Source of the DNA: Actinomycetota bacterium
GTDB lineage: Bacteria; Actinomycetota; Geothermincolia; Geothermincolales; RBG-13-55-18
Assembly: GCA_040757835.1 (NCBI GenBank)
Contig: JBFLWJ010000003.1
Location: forward strand, 146,960 to 210,959
Reading direction: 5' to 3'
DNA length: 64,000 bases
In this document: positions 6,674 to 46,507 of the stretch, piece after piece
How the letters are laid out: every line of letters starts with the position of its first letter
Position numbering within the stretch: position 1 is the stretch's first letter
Notes under the pieces: model-generated
The model's database searches: none
Seen by the model: only the letters and a program-made list of their open reading frames with translations
Told to the model about the DNA's origin: nothing
Position numbers and translations under genes: made by a program

Positions 6674-7084
6674 TTACAGTTCCGGGAAGAACAGCGCCAC
6701 CTCCCGGGCGGCGCTCTCCGGCCCGTCGGACCCATGTACGATGTTCTCGGTTATCTCGAGCCCGTAGTCTCCTCTTATGGTCCCCGGTGGGGCATCGGCG
6801 GGATCGGTGGGGCCCATGAGTTTCCTGACCACGGCGATGGCCGTTTCGCCCTCCAGCACCATGGCCACCACCTCACCCGAGGTGATGAAGGAGACCAGTT
6901 CGGGATAGAATGGCTTGTCTATATGCTCGGCATAGTGGCGGGAGGCCAGCTCCTCGTCCACCTGCAGCAGCCGCATGGCTACGATCTTCAGGCCGAGGCG
7001 TTCGAAGCGCGAGATCACCTCCCCAGCCAGTCCCCTCCTCACGCCGTCCGGCTTTACCAGCACCAGGGTCCTCTCGCTCGGCAT
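6674..7084 (-). CDS. ndk: nucleoside diphosphate kinase
   Basis: 136 aa; [10 protein letters not shown]...[19 protein letters not shown]...NIVHGSD (active-site His region). Confidence 0.95.
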
Positions 7085-7127: not shown

Positions 7128-7235
7128 GCGTACCCGTGCCAGGCCCGGCCGATCGGAATCGGCCGGGCGACTGGCACCGCCGCGTCGCCCTCCGGGCGCC
7201 GCTGTCGCCTACGCGCTTACGCGATGCAATCTATC
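7128..7235. repeat. copy D of an unrecognised structured intergenic element family ('S element'), inverted relative to copies A-C
   Basis: GTGCCAGGCC-CGGCCGATCGGAATCGGCCGGG-...GGCACCGCCGCG...CGCCCTCCGGGCG...CTTACGCGATGCAATC. Aligns at >80% (by eye) with the reverse complement of copy C (45592-45684). Lies in the folC-ndk spacer. Confidence 0.7.
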
Positions 7236-7262
7236 GTAACCTATTTTAGTAGTAGTTAGCGT

Positions 7263-8582
7263 TTATTCTGGGCGTAGCCCGAGGGCGCCGCGCGCCTCCC
7301 CCACCGTGTACAGCGAGCCGGTCACGCAGACCATGTCCGACACCGTCGCCATAGTGCGCGCGAACTTCACCGCCTCCGCCACGTCTTCCACCACCACGCA
7401 GTCATGCCCCATCTCCTTCACCAGGGCCGCCAGAGCGTGCGCCGGCATGGCGCGCTCGTCCGCGCTCTGAGTGACCACCGCCGTGGAGGCCAGGGGGAGG
7501 AGAAGCTCCAGCATGTTCCGCGCGTCCTTGTCCTCGAGTATTCCCACCACCAGGATGAGGTCGTCGTAGTCGAGGTCGTTGCTGATAACGTGCGCCAGCC
7601 TGCTCGCGCCGTCAGGGTTATGGGCCCCGTCGAGGAGTACCAGGGGATCGAGGGAGACCACCTCGAGGCGCCCCGGCGACTTCACCCTCTTCATCCCGGC
7701 CTCCACCTCCGTGGAGGACAGGGCCGAGAGCGAGCCCGCGTACGTCTCGCATGCCGCCACGGCACAGGCGGCGTTCATCGCCTGGTGCTCCCCCAGCAGG
7801 GGCACGAATAGTTCAGGATATTCCCGCAACAGGCCCTGGATGCCCACGGCCTGGCCTATTCTGCCCGTCTCCAGGCCGTAGGTCAGGTTATAGAGGAGCT
7901 GGAAGTCCCGGCCGAAGAGCCGGAGGGTGCTCCCCTTTTCATCGCAGGTTCGGGAGATCACCTCCAGGGCTGCCGGGTCGCTAACCGCGGAGATGACGTA
8001 ACTGTCCTCCTTGATGATGCCCGCCTTCTCGCAGGCGATCTTCTCCAGGGTCCCGCCCAGTTCGGCCACGTGGTCAAGGGCCACGCCAGTGATCACCTGC
8101 AGGTGCGAATCGACCAGGGTGGTGGCGTCCCACCTGCCCCCCAGCCCCACCTCGATCACGCCGACATCCACTTTGAGCGCCGCGAAGTGCACGAAGGCCA
8201 TGGCCGTGGTGACCTCGAAATAGCTCAGTGGGTCGCCGGTCTCCGCGTCCGTCTCCTCCACCTGCGGGATGATCCTCTCCAGCAGCGCCGCGAAATCGCG
8301 CTCCGGCACCGGCCTGCCGTTTATGCAGATGCGCTCGGTCACGGACTGCATGTGCGGCGACGTATAGCGAGCCACCTTCTTCCCGCTCACCTCGAGGATG
8401 GAGGAGATCATGCGCGCGGTGGAGGTCTTGCCGTTGGTGCCGGTTATATGGATGGAGGGGAACTCCAGCTGCGGCTCCCCCAGCTTGGAGCAGAGCAGCC
8501 GAATACGGTCCAGGCTGGGCTTGATGCCGTGCCGGGCCGCCTGCCCCAGATACCGCTCCGCCGCCTTGAAATCCACCATCAA
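7263..8582 (-). CDS. folC: bifunctional folylpolyglutamate synthase / dihydrofolate synthase
   Basis: 439 aa; Mur-ligase-family P-loop ITGTNGKTST, ...LLDGAHNPDG. Classic valS-folC adjacency. Confidence 0.9.
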   Translation of the reverse strand: MMVDFKAAERYLGQAARHGIKPSLDRIRLLCSKLGEPQLEFPSIHITGTNGKTSTARMISSILEVSGKKVARYTSPHMQSVTERICINGRPVPERDFAALLERIIPQVEETDAETGDPLSYFEVTTAMAFVHFAALKVDVGVIEVGLGGRWDATTLVDSHLQVITGVALDHVAELGGTLEKIACEKAGIIKEDSYVISAVSDPAALEVISRTCDEKGSTLRLFGRDFQLLYNLTYGLETGRIGQAVGIQGLLREYPELFVPLLGEHQAMNAACAVAACETYAGSLSALSSTEVEAGMKRVKSPGRLEVVSLDPLVLLDGAHNPDGASRLAHVISNDLDYDDLILVVGILEDKDARNMLELLLPLASTAVVTQSADERAMPAHALAALVKEMGHDCVVVEDVAEAVKFARTMATVSDMVCVTGSLYTVGEARGALGLRPE

Positions 8583-8601
8583 CCTCTCTTATGGCGTTTA
8601 T

Positions 8602-8726
8602 GGGGTCGGTTCTTGGATTTTGGATACTCCGGTATGTTTGCGATCAGCACAGAAAAACACCGCTTCCATACAGGCACTTTGCTTTAGATACCATATTATG
8701 GAATCCAAGATCCAAGACCTGACCCC
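8602..8726. repeat. MITE/ERIC-like element R1 with ~30-bp terminal inverted repeats (GGGGTCRGKTCTTGG...CCAAGACCTGACCCC)
   Basis: Left end GGGGTCGGTTCTTGGATTTTGGATACTCCGGTATG; right end ATGGAATCCAAGATCCAAGACCTGACCCC. Fills the valS-folC spacer. Two further copies at 35073-35197 and 39190-39313. Confidence 0.75.
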
Positions 8727-11406: not shown

Positions 11407-11530
11407 TTCTCCTCTTCCACCTGCCGATTGGCACGAAACGCGTGTTCCCATGCATGGTATGAAGCAGCCGCCCCTTTGTCAAACCTCACTGCAGTAATTA
11501 TAGTCGGCTGCGAGAGATCGTGGGGGAGAT

Positions 11531-11559
11531 GGGGTCAGACGGGGTCAGCCCCTGACCCC
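11531..11559. repeat. tandem GGGGTCAG motifs forming a perfect hairpin (GGGGTCAG-CCC-CTGACCCC), related to the MITE termini
   Basis: GGGGTCAGAC GGGGTCAGCCCCTGACCCC in the divergent valS / methyltransferase spacer. Confidence 0.6.
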
Positions 11560-11656
11560 ACTCCCTTTGTCACATGTCGGGGGCCGACCCCGTCGTGGTA
11601 GAATAACCTCCAACAGCGAGCGTTATGGAACGAGGCGAGAAGAAGGGTGTGCTGAT

Positions 11657-16519: not shown

Positions 16520-16613
16520 GATTATCCGGGGTTCAAGAACGATAAATATACTACTACTTGCATAAAGACGAGGCAAACAGCCGCATCAGCGCCGCATCGG
16601 GTCACGACGGCCA

Positions 16614-16790
16614 GCATCGCGTAAGTAAGGTTTTCGCCTAGCGAAAGCCTCATTGCGGGAAGTGGAGCGACGTGGCAACCTCGATTGGGTCTTGCGCTGA
16701 AAAAATGGGGGGCTGGAGCGCGACGGCGCCAGTCGCCTGGACGATTCCGATCGTCCAGGCCTGGCACATATGCTCCGGGATGCAACGACC
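16614..16790. repeat. copy A of unrecognised structured intergenic element family ('S element'), long form
   Basis: ATCGCGTAAG...GGAGCGACGTGGCAACCTCGAT...GGAGCGCGACGGCGCC...CGCCTGGACGATTCCGATCGTCCAGGCCTGGCACATATGCTCCGGG. Between divergent tRNA-Leu and tRNA-Arg. Homologous to 36344-36500, 45592-45684 and inverted 7128-7235. Confidence 0.7.
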
Positions 16791-18923: not shown

Positions 18924-19151
18924 TCAGGCGGGTGCGCCGCCCTTCTCTCTCTCCGCCATGCGTTCTCTGACCAGGTCCTTCAGGGGGATGCCCATCTCCT
19001 TGAACTTCCTGTATTCGTGTTTCTGGTGCCAGCCCCAGATGATAAGGAAGGAGATTATGGCGCCCCGCCGGAACCAGGCCTTTCTGTCCTTGCCCCAGGA
19101 CTCCGCGATGGAACCACAGCAATGGCCGATGATCAATGCGATGAACAGCAT
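18924..19151 (-). CDS. small hydrophobic protein (possible PLDc_N-like membrane protein)
   Basis: 75 aa; hydrophobic stretches MLFIALIIGHCC... and AIISFLIIWGW then a basic tail. No confident family assignment. Confidence 0.35.
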   Translation of the reverse strand: MLFIALIIGHCCGSIAESWGKDRKAWFRRGAIISFLIIWGWHQKHEYRKFKEMGIPLKDLVRERMAEREKGGAPA

Positions 19152-19253: not shown

Positions 19254-19880
19254 CTACTCCACGATGTAGTGGAGATAGCTGATGGCCGGTTTGGATACGG
19301 GCCGGTAGTCCCCCAGGTCGTGCTGGTAGCGGCAGTCGGTCAGGGGGCCGCAGTCGGACCCGCCCCAGGTGCAGCGCCCACCGCTGATGAGGAAGACCTT
19401 CTCCATGCGGAAATGGCTCTTGCGCCCCAGCTCGGTGTAGCCGGCCATCTTGGTGTTGGGGTCGGTGCCCATGATGGGCGCGGCCAGCCGGGGGACAAGC
19501 CTGCAGTAGAGGGGATTGCGCGCGACCACGTCGGGGACGAGGCGCAGCATGGGGTTCATCAGCTTGAGCAGGAGGGTCGCCTTGTAGTCCACCTCGATGC
19601 GGAGCCGGCCTCTCTCCCCCGTGTCCAGTTCGATGGTCCAGCGGCCGTCCTGACGGCGCGAGGTGATGTCGGTCACCACCTGCTCGTCGGAGCGGTGGAT
19701 GGTCGAGAGGAGGTCCCTGCCCGCCTCGTTGGAGGCGTAGAGGGTGCGGAAGTCGTCGGGGGTGAAGTGCATGAGGGCGCTGTAGGGCCCCACCGGCGTC
19801 TCGTCCCAGTCCTCGAAGAAGAATACGTCGTCCGGGCCGAACTGCATGGTGATGATGAACCAACCCTTCTCAACGATCAT
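19254..19880 (-). CDS. hypothetical protein (208 aa)
   Basis: Long ORF with G+C like its flanks and a start near the tRNA-Pro terminator-like hairpin. No recognisable motifs. Confidence 0.5.
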   Translation of the reverse strand: MIVEKGWFIITMQFGPDDVFFFEDWDETPVGPYSALMHFTPDDFRTLYASNEAGRDLLSTIHRSDEQVVTDITSRRQDGRWTIELDTGERGRLRIEVDYKATLLLKLMNPMLRLVPDVVARNPLYCRLVPRLAAPIMGTDPNTKMAGYTELGRKSHFRMEKVFLISGGRCTWGGSDCGPLTDCRYQHDLGDYRPVSKPAISYLHYIVE

Positions 19881-19955
19881 CTCTTCCCTCCCGCTCCTCT
19901 CAGGCCGCCGGGCATTGATTTATTGAAGGCCGGGCCCATCCCGGCCTTTGTCCCT

Positions 19956-20032
19956 GGTCGGGGTGGGCGGATTTGAACCGCCGACCTCATGCTCCCAAAG
20001 CATGCGCGCTAACCAAGCTGCGCTACACCCCG
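19956..20032 (-). tRNA. tRNA-Pro (anticodon TGG), encoded CCA
   Basis: rc = CGGGGTGTAGCGCAGCTTGGTTAGCGCGCATGCTTTGGGAGCATGAGGTCGGCGGTTCAAATCCGCCCACCCCGACCA; anticodon loop UU-TGG-GA. Confidence 0.9.
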
Positions 20033-20040
20033 TCGCCATG

Positions 20041-20049
20041 ATTATAGCA
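20041..20049 (-). promoter_or_regulatory. extended -10 promoter (TGcTATAAT) for tRNA-Pro
   Basis: Minus strand reads GATGCTATAATCATGGCGACGG then the tRNA 5' end; hexamer ends 8 nt before the mature 5' end. Identical 9-mer to the tRNA-Arg promoter. Confidence 0.55.
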
Positions 20050-20094
20050 TCGCCTTTGCCGGTGGCGTTCTATGCTAATATATCCTCGTGGCGA

Positions 20095-20170
20095 GCGGGA
20101 GTAGCTCAGATGGAAGAGCGAGAGCCTTCCAAGCTCTAGGTCGCGGGTTCGAGGCCCGTCTCCCGCTCCA
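20095..20170 (+). tRNA. tRNA-Gly (anticodon TCC), encoded CCA; insertion target of a genomic islet
   Basis: GCGGGAGTAGCTCAGATGGAAGAGCGAGAGCCTTCCAAGCTCTAGGTCGCGGGTTCGAGGCCCGTCTCCCGCTCCA; anticodon loop CU-TCC-AA. Confidence 0.9.
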
Positions 20171-20176
20171 TTTTTA

Positions 20177-20590
20177 CTATTTTCTTGTGCTAAAGGAGAC
20201 GTGGGCCTCAGGGCTTCCGTCTATTCTTATTTCCCAACGGTACCTCTTTCCAGGCTCCAGCTTGAGATTGGTGAAATTGAGGGCCTGTTTTACGCTGATT
20301 GGGGAGCCAGGTGGTACATTTGGGGGACGCCCAGCATTGAAATTTCCCTCTACTATTACTGGTGATGAAGGCTCCCCGACCATAACTTTTTCACCATCTT
20401 CAGTTTGCAGCTCGAGTTCAAATCGATGGTCTTGATTCGTCTCTGTCCATCCTACCTTTATATCAACGGCAAGCCCCATATGGTTGATGAGTGCATTACA
20501 TATGTCCCATCCTCCACCAAGGATAAAGAATTTACCTTCCACAACTTCAGCGGCATCACAAAGCATCACCATTATCTCCAATTCAATCAC
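20177..20590 (-). CDS. hypothetical protein, third gene of the islet operon (translationally coupled to antitoxin via ATGA)
   Basis: 137 aa; start overlaps the upstream stop (ATGA at 20587-20590). Beta-rich sequence with no recognisable motif. Confidence 0.5.
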   Translation of the reverse strand: MIELEIMVMLCDAAEVVEGKFFILGGGWDICNALINHMGLAVDIKVGWTETNQDHRFELELQTEDGEKVMVGEPSSPVIVEGNFNAGRPPNVPPGSPISVKQALNFTNLKLEPGKRYRWEIRIDGSPEAHVSFSTRK

Positions 20591-21056
20591 CTCCCCTCCG
20601 TCATGTTGGAGTTGATGCTTATATCCCTAAGCTCTCCTTCGGTACTATCGAAGTTGACTATGGGATCATATTCTGCAGCATTTCCGGAAAAAGCTATGCT
20701 TCTGGTCACAAAGAATCTATACGGCTGGCCATATAGATTCTTGCTAACCAAGTTCTTAAGATCATAGATGCTGCTTTCCTGCTCTTCTATTCTCCTGCAT
20801 AGAATCTCGGCTAGCTTGAACGTTGGTACCTTTTCACTTTTCTTCAATAGCCCCTCTCTTATCATTTCTCTTGCCAAGGTTGACGTTGGCATGTTCATTT
20901 CTCTCGCTTGGTCCACAAGCATCCTCAGCAATTCGGCATCTATTTTCATACTAAACACGGTGGATTTCTCCCTGGCTGGTGCAACCTCCAGCTCGATTCC
21001 TCCAACTTCATCCCAACCTTCTTCAAACATTGTCTCTTCGTCGTCTGCAAACTTCA
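20587..21056 (-). CDS. BrnA-like ribbon-helix-helix antitoxin with ~80-aa C-terminal extension
   Basis: MKFADDEETMFEEGWDEV... then RHH region STVFSMKIDAELLRMLVDQAREMNMPTSTLAREMIREGL. Its ATG overlaps the toxin stop (ATGA 21053-21056). ORF-track start at 21084 is an upstream in-frame TTG. Confidence 0.65.
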
Positions 21057-21319
21057 TTTCTTTACCTCCATTGCGGTGATACAAAACCAGGTACCCTCTT
21101 CCCTGCTATCTGGATTAATGAATATCTTTAGCCTTCTCCCTCCACGAGTCTTCCCAATCACTTTGAAGCGATATCCGTGCTTGTGGCTGAATTCTGGAAT
21201 TATCGTTCTTTCTTCATCCTCAAAAATGACCTGCTCAATCTCTTCGTAATCAATATGGTGTTTCCTCTATAACTTGTCGATAGTGTCAAAAGTCCAGCTC
21301 AACCGTTCTATTCTATAGT
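21053..21319 (-). pseudogene. BrnT-like (DUF497) ribonuclease toxin interrupted by an in-frame amber codon
   Basis: Minus strand: ATG(21319) MVLHYRIERLSWTFDTIDKL-TAG(21257-21259)-RKHHIDYEEIEQVIFEDEERTIIPEFSHKHGYRFKVIGKTRGGRRLKIFINPDSREEGTWFCITAMEVKK-TGA. Matches the BrnT pattern WD..K...N..KHG..FEE...VF.D......R....G......L.V......IRIIS. No start codon downstream of the TAG. Confidence 0.6.
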
Positions 21320-29586: not shown

Positions 29587-29610
29587 GGGGTCAGGATTTT
29601 TCCTGACCCC
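29587..29610 (+). terminator. hairpin downstream of tmRNA built from the GGGGTCAGG motif
   Basis: GGGGTCAGG-ATTTTT-CCTGACCCC; weak downstream U-tract. Confidence 0.5.
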
Positions 29611-29691
29611 ACTTGCCATTACCAAAGGCCAGCGTAAGCACGCAGCTGTCGTTTCGTTATCCGTTCAGCATTGATGACGTCAGGAGGCCCT

Positions 29692-29880: not shown

Positions 29881-30129
29881 CGAGCCGACCGCGCATCGCA
29901 ATGCCGAAACCTCACAGCCGCCCGTCCGGGTGCCGTCTATATAAAACCATCCGACCCTGGAGCTCGCGCGTTCAGGCAACTCCTTCAGTAAAATCCCTGG
30001 CCCGAGATCCGGGGGTCGGTCTGAAGCGATTTTCGCGAGCAGTATATACGGACGAGGGCTCAGATCAGGATATGTGGACTGCGAGTGTTTCGCGAAGACC
30101 GTTACCCCCGGGCTTAGGCCGGTAAAGAA

Positions 30130-34935: not shown

Positions 34936-35072
34936 CCGTTGCCCAGACCTTTGTCCCGTGACGCGAGTAAACCCTCCAGGCTCTCGAGGGAGTAGTTTAT
35001 CACGCTCAGAGGAGCCACGTCAGTTCCCGTGATATTTCGACCGCGCGAAAAGATTCTCCTGCAAAATCCAAG

Positions 35073-35197
35073 GGGTCAGGTCTTGTCTCTTGGATACTCC
35101 GGTATGTATTCCATTAAATACCATATTTCACCTCGTTAACCAGCGCTTTTGTAAGCAGCATTCCGATGTGCGCATCATAAAAACAAGACCTTACCCC
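35073..35197. repeat. MITE/ERIC-like element R2
   Basis: GGGGTCAGGTCTTGTCTCTTGGATACTCCGGTATG...CATAAAAACAAGACCTTACCCC; fills the tkt-prfB spacer, abutting the prfB stop. Confidence 0.7.
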
Positions 35198-36299
35198 TTA
35201 ACGCGCGGCTTTCCAGCGCAGGTAGGCGTCTATGAGTTCGTCGAGGTCGCCGTCGAGCACCGCGTCCACGTTGCCTATCTCCAGGTCGGTGCGGTGGTCC
35301 TTGGCCATGCGGTAGGGGTGCAGCACGTAGGAGCGTATCTGGCTCCCGAAACCGATGCCCATCTTCTCCCCCCGCAGCTTCTCGATCTCCTTCTCGCGCT
35401 CGCGGCGGGCGAGGTCGGCGAGGCGGGCCTCGAGGATACGCATGGCCGTGGCGCGGTTGGATATCTGCGAGCGCTCGTTCTGGCACGACACCACCACTCC
35501 CGTGGGCAGGTGGGTGATGCGCACGGCGGAGTCGGTGACGTTGACGTGCTGCCCTCCAGCACCGCTCGAACGGTAGGTCTCGACCCGCAAGTCCTTGGGG
35601 TCGATCTCGATGCTCTCCTCCTTGTCCAGCATGGGGATCACGTCCAGGGACGCGAAGGAGGTGTGACGGCGGCTCGAGGCGTCGTAGGGGGATATGCGCA
35701 CCAGGCGGTGCACGCCTTTCTCGGAGAGGAAGAGCCCGTAAGCGAAGCGGCCGTGTACGGTGAAGGTGGCGCTCTTGATGCCGCCGCCCTCGCCCGGCTG
35801 CAGGTCGTTGAGATCGGCCTTGAAGCCGCGCGCGTCGGCCCAGCGCAAGTACATTCGCAGCAGCATCTCCGCCCAGTCCTGCGACTCCAGACCCCCGGCC
35901 CCGGGGTGGATGCTGACGATGGCGTCGTGGGAGTCGAACTCGCCCGAGAGCAGGCTCTCCTCCTCGAGGCGGTCCACCTCCCGCTGCAGCCTGGCTACAC
36001 CCTTCCCGATATCGGTGGTCAGGCTGGCATCGTTCTCGTCTTGCGCCAGTTGAGCGAGCTCCTCGAGTTCCCTCCGCTCCGACGCCAGCCTCTCCCAGGT
36101 CTCCACGGTGTCCTTTAAAGCCGAGAGCCGCCCCAGGACGCGGCGTGCGTTGTCCTGGTCGTCCCAGAGGTCCGGGCGGGCGGACTCTTTCTCCAACTCC
36201 TCCGCCTCCGCCCGCTTTCCCTCTATGTCAAAGATACTCCTTTATCTTGACCAGCCTTCCCGCGATCTCCTCCAGCTCGCTGCGGTAATCACTCAGCAC
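35198..36299 (-). CDS. prfB: peptide chain release factor 2, requires programmed +1 ribosomal frameshift
   Basis: Frame 0: GTG(36299) LSDYRSELEEIAGRLVKIKEYL then CTT-TGA-C. +1 frame continues DIEGKRAEAEELEKESARPDLWDD... through SPYD and GGQHVNVTDSAVRITHLPTGV (GGQ motif). ORF-track lists only the 332-aa downstream frame. Confidence 0.9.
36224..36245 (-). promoter_or_regulatory. RF2 autoregulatory +1 frameshift site: internal SD (AGGAG) + CUU UGA C
   Basis: Minus strand: AAAGGAGTATCTTTGACATAG; SD-like AGGAG 3 nt upstream of CUU, in-frame UGA followed by C. This is the canonical RF2 frameshift signature. Confidence 0.85.
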
Positions 36300-36343
36300 A
36301 TCTCTCTCCTTATCCCTATGTCTTTGCGCCTACTTGTCGCTTG

Positions 36344-36500
36344 TATCGCGTAAGCCAGCCCTTTCGCGAAGCGGAAGGCATATTGCGAGGAGGCGAAGCC
36401 GTCGTGGCAAGCTCGATAGACCGGCACGCCTCAACATGATGCCTCCTCGCGGCGGTGTCCAGCGCCAGTCCCGGCGCTTCCAGGCCTGACCTGGCACGTG
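36344..36500. repeat. copy B of 'S element' (long form), in the secA-prfB spacer
   Basis: TATCGCGTAAGCCAGCCCTTTCGCG...GCGAGGAGGC...GCCTCCTCGC...GGCGGTGTCCAGCGCCAGTCCCGGCGCTTCCAGGCCTGACCTGGCACGTGTACG. 3' end runs into the secA stop codon; 5' end is ~45 nt from the prfB GTG. Confidence 0.7.
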
Positions 36501-36507
36501 TACGTCC

Positions 36508-39189: not shown

Positions 39190-39313
39190 GGGGTCAGGTC
39201 CTGTCTTTTACCTATTACGCCGTGAAGGCGTACACATAAGTGCTGGTCACAAGCGGGCATATGCCCAAAGCCCCTTGAGATACCCGAGTATCCAAGAAAC
39301 AAGACCTGACCCC
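39190..39313. repeat. MITE/ERIC-like element R3
   Basis: GGGGTCAGGTCCTGTCTTTTACC...GAGATACCCGAGTATCCAAGAAACAAGACCTGACCCC; in the spacer between the HD-protein gene and secA. Confidence 0.7.
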
Positions 39314-39324
39314 TTAGACGGGGG

Positions 39325-42398: not shown

Positions 42399-42941
42399 TC
42401 ATCCTCCCGGTTCTATCAAACCGAAGTTCCCATCTCTTCTTCTATATACCACGTTGGTCTCCTCCGTCTCGGCGTTTATAAACACGTAGAAATCGTGGCC
42501 GAGGAGTTCCATCTGCAGGCAGGCCTCCTCGGGGATCATGGGCTTCAGCGGGAAACTCTTGGTCTTGACGATGGCCGCCTCGGTTTCCTCCTCTGACGCC
42601 GCGGCCGCCGATTCCTTGAAGGGGTTTTTAGCGTGGTGCGAACGGTCGATCATCTTCTGTTTTACCTTGCGCGCCTGGCGCTCCAGCTTGTTCGACACCA
42701 GGTCGATGGCCTGGTACATATCCACCGCCGACTCCCTGGCCCGGATGATGGGGCCGCTGGAGAAGACGGTCACCTCGACCACCTGGTTGTCCTGTATCTT
42801 GGGGTTCCTTTCGACGCTCATCTCGATCTCCGTCTTCAGGATGCGGTCGAGGTACTTCTCGACCCTGCTCACTTTCTCCAGGGCATATCCTCGCAACGCC
42901 TCGGTCACCTCTATGTTCTTGCCCTTGACGATGATCTGCAT
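42399..42941 (-). CDS. hpf: ribosome hibernation promoting factor (long HPF)
   Basis: Starts at Met13 of the ORF (MQIIVKGKNIEVTEALRGYALEKV...), S30AE/YfiA domain plus C-terminal dimerisation domain (...ACLQMELLGHDFYVFIN...). Confidence 0.9.
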   Translation of the reverse strand: MQIIVKGKNIEVTEALRGYALEKVSRVEKYLDRILKTEIEMSVERNPKIQDNQVVEVTVFSSGPIIRARESAVDMYQAIDLVSNKLERQARKVKQKMIDRSHHAKNPFKESAAAASEEETEAAIVKTKSFPLKPMIPEEACLQMELLGHDFYVFINAETEETNVVYRRRDGNFGLIEPGG

Positions 42942-43428
42942 CCCCCGCACTCCCTTCTCCTCCGATAAAAAACCCATACCAGGTTCAAGGGCGGTATGGG
43001 CCTTCTTCAGGACCTATTCGAAAAGCAAATCCCGGCCCCGGGCCTTAACCCGGCGCTTACGTATTCGACTCGCATAAGCCTAGCATACGTCCAACCCTCT
43101 GCCAACAAATGGCCCGAAAAGTGAAGGCCTCGAAACCCGGCTGACCTGGTCTTTGACCCCACACTCGCCTGCCGAGCGTCTCGCAGCGGAAGGGATCCCG
43201 CGCGGGCTTTGCCCGACCGCCACTAATGCGCTTCTCCGGTTTGTTCCGGGCAGGTCTTACCCCTAAGCCGCACCATGCTCACCAACCAAGAGTTGGCTTA
43301 CGTGGGTCGTTTCGCCTGCGGCTGGCATCGACTTTCAACCACAGACCCGGGCCGAAGCCTTCCCATACATTATAAGGTGAGCGCCTGTGATATGCACATG
43401 AACCGGCCTGTGCGTCCGAGTCACGGAG

Positions 43429-45510
43429 CTATGGCATGGAGGCCGGCAGCGGCGGGTACGAGGGGTTCTCGGCCTGCCACCGCTTGTATGCGGACCAGGA
43501 GGCGTGGGGAGTGCCGTCGTAGCTGAAGAGGCCGAAATAACTCTTGTCCCAAGACCTGCCCGGTTTCTCGTCCATGTCCTTGTAGACCCAGATCTTGCGG
43601 CATCCCGCCCGCCTCAGGAGGCCGATGCCCCAGTCCCCGATGGCGTCGGCCTGCCCCTGCCCGCTGAACATATCCGGCTGGTCGTCCTTGTGGTGGAGCC
43701 AGCCTATCTCCGTGGCGGCGACCTCCTTCTCCACCCCGATGGAGCGCATCGCCTGGACCAGGTTGGCATAGAAGGGCCCCCAGTTGCCGGGGCTGCGGTA
43801 GGGGTGGACCCCTACCATATCGCAGTGCTCGTTGAAGCCCAGCATGTCCCCGGCCGCCACCTCGACCCCGGCGAGTGCTTGCAGGAGCACTTCCTTGTGC
43901 AGCGCCTCTCCCCTGCCCATGGCGAAATCGAGGCCGGCCCGCACCGGCCGCTCTCCCCCGTTCCACAGGCTGATGACGTCGCGCATGGAGAACTGGTTGT
44001 AGCCAGCCGGGAAATCCCACCGGGTGCGGGGCTCGCCCGCGCCCCGCGAAGTATACTCACCGCTGCATGAATCGCCGCAGTAGAAACGGGGCGATAACTC
44101 CGCCACCAGGGGTGCGCTGCCGCGGACTTCGATGGACGCTCCGCCCGCGCAGGATGCCCCGGTGACTCCCGGAGCCACGGACACCCTCCCGCACGACTGC
44201 GCCGCCACCTCCACGTGCCTGTTCTCGCTTGAGCCGTCCGGGAAGCGGTATACGATCTCCGCCTCGACCGCCTGCGACCCGGTGTTCAGAAGGCTCAGGA
44301 ACTCCTTTACGGTGTAGTCCCCGGAGCCGTCCTCGCAGGCCCACTCCCGGCGCGGCGAATAGGCGTCTGGCTCGCCGTTCCGCTCCTTCACGGTGCCCCC
44401 CTGGCGGTAGTAGAGCGAGCGCTCCGCTATGATGGGCCGGTCCGACGAGACCGCGATGGACACCTCGCCCAGCTTGGAGTCGTGCCTACCCACACCCAGC
44501 CCCTCGTCGAAGACGGGAAAGACCAGGCTCGACCTCGCCGGCACCCTGATATTCCGGCTCTCACTGGTGCCGTTACCGCGGAAGTATGTGATGGCCACCG
44601 CGGCTTCCTGCCGCTCCCGGTTATCAAGGGAGAGCCACATGTCGCAGCCGGACCTGGTGCAGCCCTCCGCGAAGAACCACCGGGTCCTCCCCGGGTCGAT
44701 GCCCATGAGGCCGTCCGCAAGCAGTCCGTCCCGGGAACAGACGAGGCGGAGCGTGCGTGCGGCCACGATGTCGCCGTCCGCCCTCACCGTGAGCGCGGCC
44801 TCCTGGCGGGGGCGCGAGGCATCGTCGAAGAGGCGGGTGTAGAGGCCGGTGCCCGTGTCCGGGTCGTCCGCCAGCGTGTCGAGCAGGGAGCCGCAGATGA
44901 CGATTCCCGAGGGGTCCTTTTCCTTGATGGCGGTATACGCCAGTTGCAGGAGGGGCAGGTAGTCCGTCTCCACCTGGCCCCCGAAATGATAGGTCCCGAG
45001 CAGACGGTAGGCTTCTCCATCGCTGTCCCAGCCCGGCTCGTTCCATACCTCGTAGAAGTCCACTACCGGACCGTAGCGTTCGGCGGCCGCCGCGCAGAAG
45101 TCGCGCCAGCGCCCCAGGTCCGCGGGCGGGGCCTTGTCTGCGAACTCTCCATAAGCCGCGTCCCTGGCCCATGCGGGGATGGGCCCGCCCAGGACCAGCA
45201 TTATGGACTGGCTTCCGTCCGCGAGGACCGCGCCTATCAGCTCGTCGTAGCGGCTCCAGTCAAAGGGCCCCGCCTGGGGCTGCACGTTCCTCCACCTCAC
45301 CTCGATCTTGTGGTGGCGGATCCAGCGCCTCTCCTCGAGGGGTACCTTGGCAAGGGTCCTGCTGTTGTACCCCGGCACGTCCAGGCCGAGGATGGTCCAG
45401 TCGGCTACGTCTTTCCTGCCGCCCGCACCATCGCCACCGTAGATGGGTGTTCCAGGAACGAGCAGGGCGGCGAAAAAGATGAGCACGAGCACGATGAACC
45501 GGACTCTCAT
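43429..45510 (-). CDS. secreted glycoside hydrolase, clan GH-A (GH5/GH39-like) catalytic residues with three internal ~100-aa repeats
   Basis: Signal peptide MRVRFIVLVLIFFAALLVPG; acid/base motif FYEVWNEPGW; nucleophile motif VAATEIGW ~440 residues later. The intervening region has three similar modules (RWFFAEG...LSLDN..., EWACEDG...LSLLN..., RWDFPAG...ISLWN...). Start at Met56 of ORF with GGGAGGAG SD. Confidence 0.7.
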   Translation of the reverse strand: MRVRFIVLVLIFFAALLVPGTPIYGGDGAGGRKDVADWTILGLDVPGYNSRTLAKVPLEERRWIRHHKIEVRWRNVQPQAGPFDWSRYDELIGAVLADGSQSIMLVLGGPIPAWARDAAYGEFADKAPPADLGRWRDFCAAAAERYGPVVDFYEVWNEPGWDSDGEAYRLLGTYHFGGQVETDYLPLLQLAYTAIKEKDPSGIVICGSLLDTLADDPDTGTGLYTRLFDDASRPRQEAALTVRADGDIVAARTLRLVCSRDGLLADGLMGIDPGRTRWFFAEGCTRSGCDMWLSLDNRERQEAAVAITYFRGNGTSESRNIRVPARSSLVFPVFDEGLGVGRHDSKLGEVSIAVSSDRPIIAERSLYYRQGGTVKERNGEPDAYSPRREWACEDGSGDYTVKEFLSLLNTGSQAVEAEIVYRFPDGSSENRHVEVAAQSCGRVSVAPGVTGASCAGGASIEVRGSAPLVAELSPRFYCGDSCSGEYTSRGAGEPRTRWDFPAGYNQFSMRDVISLWNGGERPVRAGLDFAMGRGEALHKEVLLQALAGVEVAAGDMLGFNEHCDMVGVHPYRSPGNWGPFYANLVQAMRSIGVEKEVAATEIGWLHHKDDQPDMFSGQGQADAIGDWGIGLLRRAGCRKIWVYKDMDEKPGRSWDKSYFGLFSYDGTPHASWSAYKRWQAENPSYPPLPASMP

Positions 45511-45591
45511 CGCAAACGCCCCACGCCCTTTTCTCCTCCCGGTTTTTGTCCTGCCGTGATTATAAGGTATATCGTCTGCCTCCGCTGATTG

Positions 45592-45684
45592 CATCGCGTA
45601 AGCGACAGCGACGCCCTGAGGGCGGCGCGGCGGTGTCCCAGCGCCTGGACATTTCCGAATGTCCAGGCCTGGCACGTGTACGTA
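45592..45684. repeat. copy C of 'S element' (short form), in the long 5' leader of the GH gene
   Basis: CATCGCGTAAGCGACAGCGACGCCCTGAGGGCGGCGCGGCGGTGTCCCAGCGCCTGGACATTTCCGAATGTCCAGGCCTGGCACGTGTACG. Confidence 0.7.
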
Positions 45685-45970
45685 CGGTGATAGTGGCCCG
45701 GGAAACTACCAGGTCGGCCGAAACTGTGCATAGAGATGGTTCATGGATAGCGATCCCGCCCGGGTGTCGCCCATACAAACCCCCCGGCAAGCACGGCTGC
45801 TTGCGGGAAAGGTCGGCAAGCCCGGTTCGTCAAGGCGTTCGGGCGACCTCGTCTGTGCTGCCCCTTGCCCGGCGAGCAAGGTGCTCGGAGGAGCCTGCGA
45901 CGACGACCAGCCTTGTCGCCGGGCCGCTAAAACGGTATTGGAGTGAGCCCGAACGCCTCTCCGTCCCGGA

Positions 45971-46507
45971 TTACCCCGTCCCGTCGAGGTAGCCGTGCGC
46001 ACCCAACCAATCCATGAGCTTGCCCACGCTCTCGGAGGTCTCCTCGGCGCACGTGTCCAGGACCAGTTCCGGGTCTTCGGGGTCCTCGTAGGGGTCATCG
46101 ACTCCCGTGAAGTCCTTGATCTCGCCGGCCAGTGCCTTGGCCCAGAGTCCCTTGGGGTCGCGCTTCGCGCACTCTTCGGCCGGGCAGCGCACGAAGACCT
46201 CGATGAAGTCCTCGATGTCCTCCCTGATCGCCTGGCGGAAGGAGCGGTAGGGAGATATCAGTGCCACGATCACCGCCACGCCGTTGCGCGAGAGCAACTT
46301 GCTCACGTAGGCGACGCGCATGGCGTGGATCTCGCGGTCCTCCTTGCTGAAACCGAGGTCACGGCTGAGGCCTTTCCTGACCTCGTCGCCGTCCATCACC
46401 TCGACCCGCTTCCCCATGTCGCGGAGCTTTCGCTCCAGGTCGACGGCCACGGTGGTCTTGCCCGAGCCAGGAAGACCGGTCAGCCATACCACAAATCCCT
46501 TGTCCAT
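45971..46507 (-). CDS. cysC: adenylyl-sulfate kinase
   Basis: VVWLTGLPGSGKTT (P-loop), ...VIVALISPYR... typical APS kinase; 178 aa. Confidence 0.9.
   Translation of the reverse strand: MDKGFVVWLTGLPGSGKTTVAVDLERKLRDMGKRVEVMDGDEVRKGLSRDLGFSKEDREIHAMRVAYVSKLLSRNGVAVIVALISPYRSFRQAIREDIEDFIEVFVRCPAEECAKRDPKGLWAKALAGEIKDFTGVDDPYEDPEDPELVLDTCAEETSESVGKLMDWLGAHGYLDGTG

Follow-up and report, generated by a model that had tools for sequence, protein, structure and literature searches.

The S-element, an apparently undescribed family of intergenic repeats with a one-strand fold in Geothermincolia-like Actinomycetota

Four copies in the window and their gene context

In the window, by which we mean the whole 64-kb stretch of DNA that was analysed, copy D of the intergenic repeat treated here, the S-element, lies between two minus-strand genes identified from the ORF listing and Pfam, encoding a FolC-type Mur ligase (7263-8582) and Ndk (6674-7084), and is in sense orientation to both. 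It starts 24 nt past the folC stop and ends 44 nt ahead of the ndk ATG. The conserved unit of D occupies 7236-7128 of the minus strand, with a motif-to-motif span of 7136-7225 (minus), and it is the minus strand (7128-7236) that here reads ATCGCGTAAG...CCTGGCAC; in the three other copies this reading is carried by the plus strand, with motif pairs placed by motif searches and direct reading at 16616-16767 (copy A), 36345-36497 (copy B) and 45593-45675 (copy C). Motif searches and sequence reading thereby confirm the initial annotation, which had described D as inverted relative to A, B and C. According to the motif searches, both terminal motifs co-occur four times in the window, and a covariance model derived from 40 relatives recovers precisely this set, with E-values of 1e-32 (C), 1e-25 (D), 5e-10 (A) and 6e-5 (B), together with one doubtful match.

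Copy D is a short form (7128..7236, minus strand; 90 bits, E=1.3e-25). By direct reading and the model, its parts on the minus strand are a leader, CGATAGATTGCA, followed by a first hairpin, P1 (7224-7221 with 7208-7205), whose loop is enlarged by an 8-nt partial duplication, then P2 (7202-7182), P3 (7179-7135, with a UCCG loop at 7157-7154) and the tail GGTACGC. Copy C (45580..45686, plus strand; 112.9 bits, E=1.2e-32) represents the canonical short form, with UCGC-GUAA-GCGA as P1, a long P2 and a UCCG loop on P3. The other two, identified by motif searches and the covariance model, are long forms: in copy A (16603..16778, plus strand) a ~90-nt 5' module (AUCGCGUAAG, a hairpin and AUUGCG...GUGGCAAcCUCGAU) takes the place of P1 and P2 and is followed by the common P3, and copy B (36332..36506, plus strand) is a P3 apex variant. 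A 16-nt relic of the element, AGCGTAAGCACGCAGC, with P2 and P3 deleted, remains on the plus strand at 29631..29646, downstream of tmRNA, in the gap between it and a dodecin gene. The doubtful match, a very weak one (10.5 bits, E=0.25), lies upstream of valS (11476..11576, plus strand).

Copies B and C are antisense to their neighbours, B being bounded by the stop of secA (36508) and the start of prfB (36301), two minus-strand genes, and C by a 693-aa gene starting at 45510 (minus) and an APS kinase gene (45971-46507, minus). Copy A is flanked by divergent tRNA genes, tRNA-Leu (minus) and tRNA-Arg/His (plus), so that the earlier statement that all flanking genes share a strand holds for B, C and D, whose neighbours are all minus-strand genes, and fails for A. 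Beside copy B, prfB (36196-36301, minus) appears to hold the usual programmed +1 frameshift, with a short N-terminal ORF that runs from 36301 and ends ...EYL at CTT TGA, and a main ORF at 35198-36196.

The window contains further intergenic repeats. A ~40-nt hairpin, GGGGTCAGG...CCTGACCCC (ATACCCGAGTATCCAAGAAACAAGACCTGACCCC...), is found at 8595-8635, 8718-8726, 11551-11559, 29587-29610, 35067-35105, 39190-39198 and 39280-39320, with seven occurrences of CCTGACCCC in the window against 1.75 expected, and this module also lies near S-element copies in many metagenome loci. A third module, GGGGTCGGTCTGAAGCGA, is present at 30012-30029 and in loci L026, L077 and L116, and flanks S-element copies in a composite repeat at contig ends of the metagenome-assembled genome (MAG) CAZGWK01. 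Elsewhere, GC content falls to 0.575-0.59 between 18000 and 24000, around tRNA-Pro and tRNA-Gly (19955-20170), a region that includes four small ORFs without a Pfam match (18924-19151, 19254-19880, 20405-20767 and 20908-21249) and possibly represents a small island.

In the relatives L245 and L246 (95% Ndk identity; ENA and JGI assemblies), and likewise in L250 and L251 (89% Ndk identity), a sense-oriented copy also occupies the spacer between folC and ndk. Since these independent assemblies hold a copy in the same orientation between the same two genes, a misassembly at D is excluded, and a copy has been present there for some time. The subtypes at this site differ, with a short form in the window, a long form in L245 and a different P3 apex in L250; at the secA-prfB site, the window has a long form and L168 a short one. 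A further lineage whose Ndk is 89% identical has other repeat modules at this site in place of the S-element, and in more distant relatives (85-71% Ndk identity) the folC-ndk spacers are unrelated, purine-rich and unalignable with D, which leaves insertion ends undefinable there. One lineage, seen in L247 (8928-10000) and L248 (6707-7642), has a spacer of ~1 kb ahead of ndk that lacks the S-element and is taken up by several different repeat modules, among them GGGACAGGATTTATCCTGGCCCC and CCGTCTGCGCAC.

When aligned with the reverse complements of the other copies, D is 88% identical to A over 49 nt and matches C in two ungapped blocks, 90% over 41 nt and 78% over 46 nt. An identity to C above 80%, as estimated by eye in the initial annotation, is thus borne out for the ungapped blocks; the global identity, which counts the 8-nt insertion in D, is 75%. 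The family median is 0.758, and other metagenomes hold closer relatives of both copies (C is 89% identical to L137, D 82% to L140). Because D and C are related at the level of the family median, and both are closer to copies from other metagenomes, there is no sign of a recent duplication from one to the other; the proposal of recent mobility or duplication between two sites 38 kb apart is further opposed by the occupation of the site in relatives.

Family range and unit architecture

The family was collected with two pattern scans and an nhmmer profile search, followed by a covariance model, R1. Most matches listed in the pattern scan of GTDB genomes were chance ones from GC-rich genomes; at least 15 true copies are among them, in the uncultured Actinomycetota MAGs CAYHAT01, CAYPZH01, CAZGWK01, QZKE01 (SURF_21) and CAYWXM01, to which the profile search added JAFGDU01 and JABLXL01. 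A second pattern applied to metagenome contigs yielded 55 further loci, nhmmer across all loci gave 111 matches, and R1 aligned 100 copies on 79 contigs of Geothermincolia-like Actinomycetota. The S-element is thus present in at least seven GTDB species-level MAGs labelled Actinomycetota. The Ndk of the window is 100% identical to a protein of a MAG named 'Actinomycetota bacterium', and its relatives at 70-78% identity are named Geothermincolales or Geothermincolia.

An Rfam scan of the window at gathering thresholds returned raiA, tmRNA and tRNAs and no match to the S-element, and E-value scans of D, A and B returned chance matches only. As expected for raiA, this RNA motif (43132-43355, minus; 167 bits) precedes a gene for a ribosome hibernation factor (42399-42977, Ribosomal_S30AE). 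No true match was found in collections of plasmids, phages and viral contigs, where none of the four viral pattern matches is a family member, and a phage, plasmid or viral origin was rejected on these grounds. A literature search brought up nothing relevant to the sequence or to repeats in Geothermincolia. The family is therefore apparently undescribed and is specific to a clade of uncultured Geothermincolia-like Actinomycetota, in which four copies per 64 kb probably scale to 100 or more copies per genome. Its definition at covariance-model quality allows the many intergenic regions filled by this repeat in an uncultured class of actinobacteria to be annotated, explains contig breaks, and guards against miscalling such loci as riboswitches or small RNAs.

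An alignment of 40 full copies defines a unit of ~110 nt with three hairpins, in the order leader (CGAnAGnnUGCA), P1, P2, P3 and tail. The consensus of P1 is (U/G)CGC-GNAA-GCG(A/C), followed by the linker CA; P2 has a GCG...CGC base and a variable top and is followed by the linker GACG; P3 reads GUG[bulge]CCAG[bulge]GCC, a variable stem and apex, and GGC-CUGG-CAC, and the tail is GnGUAC(RUCYG). The arms of P3a form an inverted repeat, GTGCCAGG...CCTGGCAC, and insertions of variable length extend the P3 apex to roughly 50-90 nt. In long forms the ~90-nt module that replaces P1 and P2 is itself repeated elsewhere (L030, L088, L112, where it is in tandem, L185, L193, L238 and L245). A helix P0 that would close the unit by pairing the UGCAU leader with the GUACRU tail was considered and rejected, as inspection of the 40-copy alignment revealed neither complementarity nor covariation, and a pseudoknot between the UCCG loop of P3 and CGGA in the tail is possible in a subset of copies only.

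In the 40-copy alignment 95.3% of cells are paired, 12 pairs have changed on both sides, and no shuffle or slid register approaches the observed pairing. The 100-copy alignment gives a similar picture, with 94.6% of cells paired, compensatory changes in 22 of the 30 pairs and a fold matched by none of 500 shuffles. The P1 loop is GNAA in 92/96 copies, all four bases being seen at N. Fold z-scores lie between -2.4 and -3.75 on both strands, and P3 is a stable hairpin either way, yet the tolerated mismatches point to one strand: G.U outnumbers A.C by 70 to 21, and pairs with more G.U than A.C number 16 against 4 with the opposite tendency (sign test p=0.012), where neutral decay of a duplex palindrome would give a ratio of 1:1. 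The fold is therefore constrained on one defined strand, as RNA or as single-stranded DNA (ssDNA). The hairpin signature of P1 is by itself no proof of RNA, since it contains GCGAAAGC or GCGTAAGC, which are exceptionally stable DNA mini-hairpins, GCGAAAGC being known as ultra-stable. A plain double-stranded DNA function, one of the options raised for D at the outset, is opposed by the covariation, by the near-invariant GNAA loop and by the G.U excess alike.

Orientation, position and turnover

Orientation relative to genes was surveyed at 89 sites, with arrays merged and with a GC3-based ORF caller that had been validated on the window. Between co-directional genes, 22 sites are in sense and 20 in antisense orientation; a further 16 sites lie between convergent genes and 13 between divergent ones. 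The gene downstream of a copy is on the opposite strand at about half of the sites, and these downstream genes are functionally unrelated. The orientation of the S-element with respect to its neighbours is random, so that D is no exception and a 5'-UTR regulator is excluded for the family. The orientation independence first noted from four copies thus extends family-wide, and the survey reveals no strict bias to which D would be the lone exception (22:20); the accompanying argument against a strand-specific cis-RNA holds as well, in that random orientation excludes a cis-regulator of the 5'-UTR type. Copy D is simply a member lying in sense orientation, and a single inverted copy is by itself ordinary for repeat families of this sort. 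GC skew is negative and constant along the whole window, with both orientations inside it; this rules out a replichore switch between D and A, and no replication-linked orientation bias was found from the skew in the window.

All surveyed copies are intergenic, at a median distance of 24.5 nt from facing gene 3' ends versus 108.5 nt from gene starts. The median distance to a stop codon is 11 nt for sense copies and 42 nt for antisense copies, and in co-directional pairs 29 of 42 copies are closer to the preceding stop. Copies thus land in the neutral zone just past stop codons, in either orientation.

The family has no conserved promoter. No upstream motif is conserved past -13, where information content falls to zero, and TANNNT stands at a fixed position in 17/62 copies (27%) without a -35. 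The TAGACT-like leader was accordingly rejected as an actinobacterial -10, also because a transcript starting from it would lack the first pair of P1, which covaries. No sigma-70 promoter or terminator consensus was detected at D. P3 is not followed by a U-tract on either strand, the opposite-strand tail reading CGUCGCGCC, which speaks against a canonical bidirectional terminator, another of the functions suggested for D.

A classical MITE had been suggested too, and this finds no support at the element's ends, which show neither terminal inverted repeats (TIRs) nor copy-specific target-site duplications (TSDs); there is no conservation or complementarity beyond the unit, and the two flanks of one copy are more similar to each other than are the flanks of different copies in tandem arrays only. 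The S-element contains no ORF. No transposase lies next to copies, and the 152 flanking proteins, when clustered, fall into diverse housekeeping families only; Pfam revealed no mobile genes among the neighbours in the window, and tblastn of the 8-20-kb fragments around copies with IS200 TnpA and RAYT queries gave no match near any copy. A mobile-gene neighbourhood was rejected on these results. A pentamer, RTCYG, is enriched at +5/+6 after P3 (...GGCACG) in 26/62 unique copies, for example in L164, L138, L077 and L097, and at -29/-28 before TCGCG in 10/62; on both sides of the copy it is often followed by CGCACC-like sequence, and it could be a cleavage or target motif or the remnant of a neighbouring unit.

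Copy number and integrity vary between close relatives. Direct head-to-tail arrays of two or three units are present at 15/89 sites; L134 and L196, in DNA that is otherwise ~98% identical, carry one and two copies, respectively, and L160 has a full copy at the position of the relic at 29631-29646 of the window. L082 carries three tandem copies ahead of valS (2008-2389), against no more than the doubtful match in the window. CAZGWK01 has an S-element embedded in a larger composite repeat with another module, and L077 has a truncated copy together with composite repeats. Between the near-identical L028 and L143 there are 3 differences in the 110-nt element versus ~8 in 1800 nt of flank. Copies have therefore been multiplied, homogenised, tandem-duplicated and lost over short evolutionary times. 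In the array of L082, each of the first two units is followed by a terminator-like hairpin, CCCGGAUnnAnAC(C)CCGGG-UUUU, and the third by a degenerate hairpin without the U-run, then by a TAGAAT -10 and an apparently leaderless ATG.

Candidate explanations and known repeat systems

We give a probability of roughly one half to the reading that the S-element is a new REP/BIME-like, modular family of non-autonomous intergenic repeats folded as a single strand. Its propagation or maintenance would require a trans-acting factor that recognises one strand in its folded, single-stranded state, whether in an RNA intermediate or in ssDNA of the kind that HUH/RAYT-type enzymes act on. When neighbouring mRNAs read through a copy, the ~20-bp GC-rich P3 hairpin would form in either orientation and would probably serve, as a side effect, as a 3'-end barrier or processing site. 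We infer the trans-acting factor, the reading of the strand as ssDNA or RNA and the action of P3 on mRNA 3' ends; the one-strand fold, the random orientation, the position after stop codons and the turnover are observed. Several observations count against the REP/BIME-like reading: no mobilising enzyme was found in the fragments around copies, nor were defined insertion ends, TSDs or TIRs, and arrays run head-to-tail and are not the inverted pairs typical of BIME or REPIN. A lack of any link between orientation and gene strand or GC skew would also be unusual for ssDNA insertion at replication forks, and the strong conservation of primary sequence across genomes whose Ndk proteins are 5-11% apart, with some sites kept, could reflect a host function.

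There is a small but appreciable chance that the S-element is something newer in kind, either a self-propagating structured element with an RNA or excised-ssDNA intermediate and a Geothermincolia enzyme, or a multicopy family of trans-acting, GNRA-docked three-helix RNAs; this reading draws on the combination of a one-strand fold, the lack of an own promoter and the absence of an orientation preference with respect to transcription or replication. If the copies were multicopy genes for independently transcribed trans-acting small RNAs (~105-150 nt), each copy being a gene of its own, the orientation of neighbours would be irrelevant. The one-strand fold, GNAA tetraloop and G.U tolerance are in line with such genes, as are the variable-length apical insertions of P3, which many real RNAs have, the same-orientation occupancy of some sites across relatives and, in L082, the CCCGG...CCGGG-UUUU terminator-like hairpins after tandem units and the divergent promoter region. 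We nevertheless regard them as unlikely, since there is no conserved promoter (TANNNT in 17/62 copies lacks a -35, and its start would cut the first P1 pair), D lacks promoter and terminator consensus, copies abut stop codons, relics, truncations and quick changes in copy number occur, and in near-identical strains the element has changed more quickly than the DNA around it. The proximity of stop codons in both orientations (medians of 11 and 42 nt) argues instead for a host-selected mRNA 3'-end element, acting as stabiliser, RNase processing site or factor-dependent terminator, whose near-palindromic P3 works both ways; P3 is indeed stable on both strands, and copies occupy regions classically associated with attenuation or processing, rplL-rpoB among them (L209, L164). 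A symmetric hairpin, however, has no need of a GNAA loop or a G.U excess, and conservation of P1, P2 and the unpaired linkers is confined to one strand. The missing U-tract, the 13 sites between divergent genes, which have no mRNA 3' end, and the relics and presence/absence differences among close relatives, which oppose necessity at each site, make this reading quite unlikely.

Mobilisation as ssDNA could also take the form of an IS200/IS605-type (HUH Y1) miniature, like a PATE or an orphan omega-RNA scaffold, cut at motifs near subterminal hairpins. Strand-specific hairpins without TSDs or TIRs are what is seen here, P1 holds the exceptionally stable DNA mini-hairpins GCGAAAGC or GCGTAAGC, and the RTCYG ends lie ~10 nt past the P3 foot (26/62) and ~23 nt before P1 (10/62), a spacing that resembles that of IS608 cleavage sites. 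This reading is improbable given that none of ~100 copies has a TnpA or TnpB gene beside it, that the left hairpin is unlike the right one, that orientation is unbiased with respect to gene strand and GC skew, and that the Rfam IS605-orfB and HEARO models have no match; moreover, the 5' RTCTG may be the tail of a decayed upstream unit. Very improbable, finally, is a cis-regulatory leader or riboswitch for the downstream gene, or a double-stranded DNA operator for a dimeric protein. D, the last copy of L061 and some others do stand in sense orientation 25-50 nt ahead of a start codon, but in roughly half the family the gene downstream runs on the other strand, and downstream genes have no common function; as a general explanation the leader is refuted by the orientation survey. 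The inverted repeat formed by the P3a arms would suit an operator, and against this stand the compensatory changes, the G.U tolerance and the insertions, up to ~90 nt long, that separate the arms at the apex.

The S-element is a clean case of a fold conserved on one strand in randomly oriented copies, and a factor that reads the folded strand could show how such repeats spread in Actinomycetota, for which, to our knowledge, no enzyme mobilising interspersed repeats of this kind has been described. Among known systems, it resembles IS200/IS605-related PATEs and omega-RNA scaffolds in its strand-specific hairpins, the lack of TIRs and TSDs, a motif outside the terminal hairpin and RNA-like covariation, and differs from IS200/IS605 derivatives in that tnpA and tnpB are missing beside the copies in some 100 contexts, that neither gene strand nor replication strand biases the orientation, and that it matches neither Rfam's IS605-orfB model nor HEARO. 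MIRUs are likewise actinobacterial and form intergenic direct tandem copies (of ~50-100 nt, within operons) whose number varies between strains; MIRUs are, however, oriented with the operon and contain small ORFs that couple translation, whereas the S-element is randomly oriented and has no ORF. BOX of Streptococcus pneumoniae and ERIC/IRU of enterobacteria are intergenic repeats of 100-200 nt with stable folds, and the modular structure of BOX (boxA-boxB(n)-boxC), with its tandem modules, is comparable to the short and long forms and arrays described here. BOX and ERIC are near-complete imperfect palindromes, in contrast to the asymmetric and strand-specific S-element with its GNAA loop and G.U bias, and there is no sequence relationship to BOX or ERIC/IRU.

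With the REP/BIME repeats of Enterobacteria and Pseudomonas, which are associated with RAYT/TnpA-REP, the S-element shares a high copy number, an extragenic position just past genes, both orientations, hairpins with compensatory changes, clustering with other repeat modules, the absence of an ORF and, probably, a presence as hairpins at mRNA 3' ends. A REP, however, is a single palindrome of 20-40 nt with a 5' GTAG, whereas the S-element has ~110 nt, three different hairpins and conserved linkers, and in place of a GTAG-type tetranucleotide, which is absent, has only GTAC in its 3' tail. REPs usually occur as inverted pairs (BIME, REPIN), whereas all 15 S-element arrays are head-to-tail direct, and REPs have a cognate RAYT, whereas none is linked to the S-element in the fragments around copies. 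The family is thus not a full fit to REP-RAYT, a MITE, an IS200/IS605 derivative, an Rfam family, an intrinsic terminator or a riboswitch; it behaves like REP/BIME and yet is apparently a separate family.
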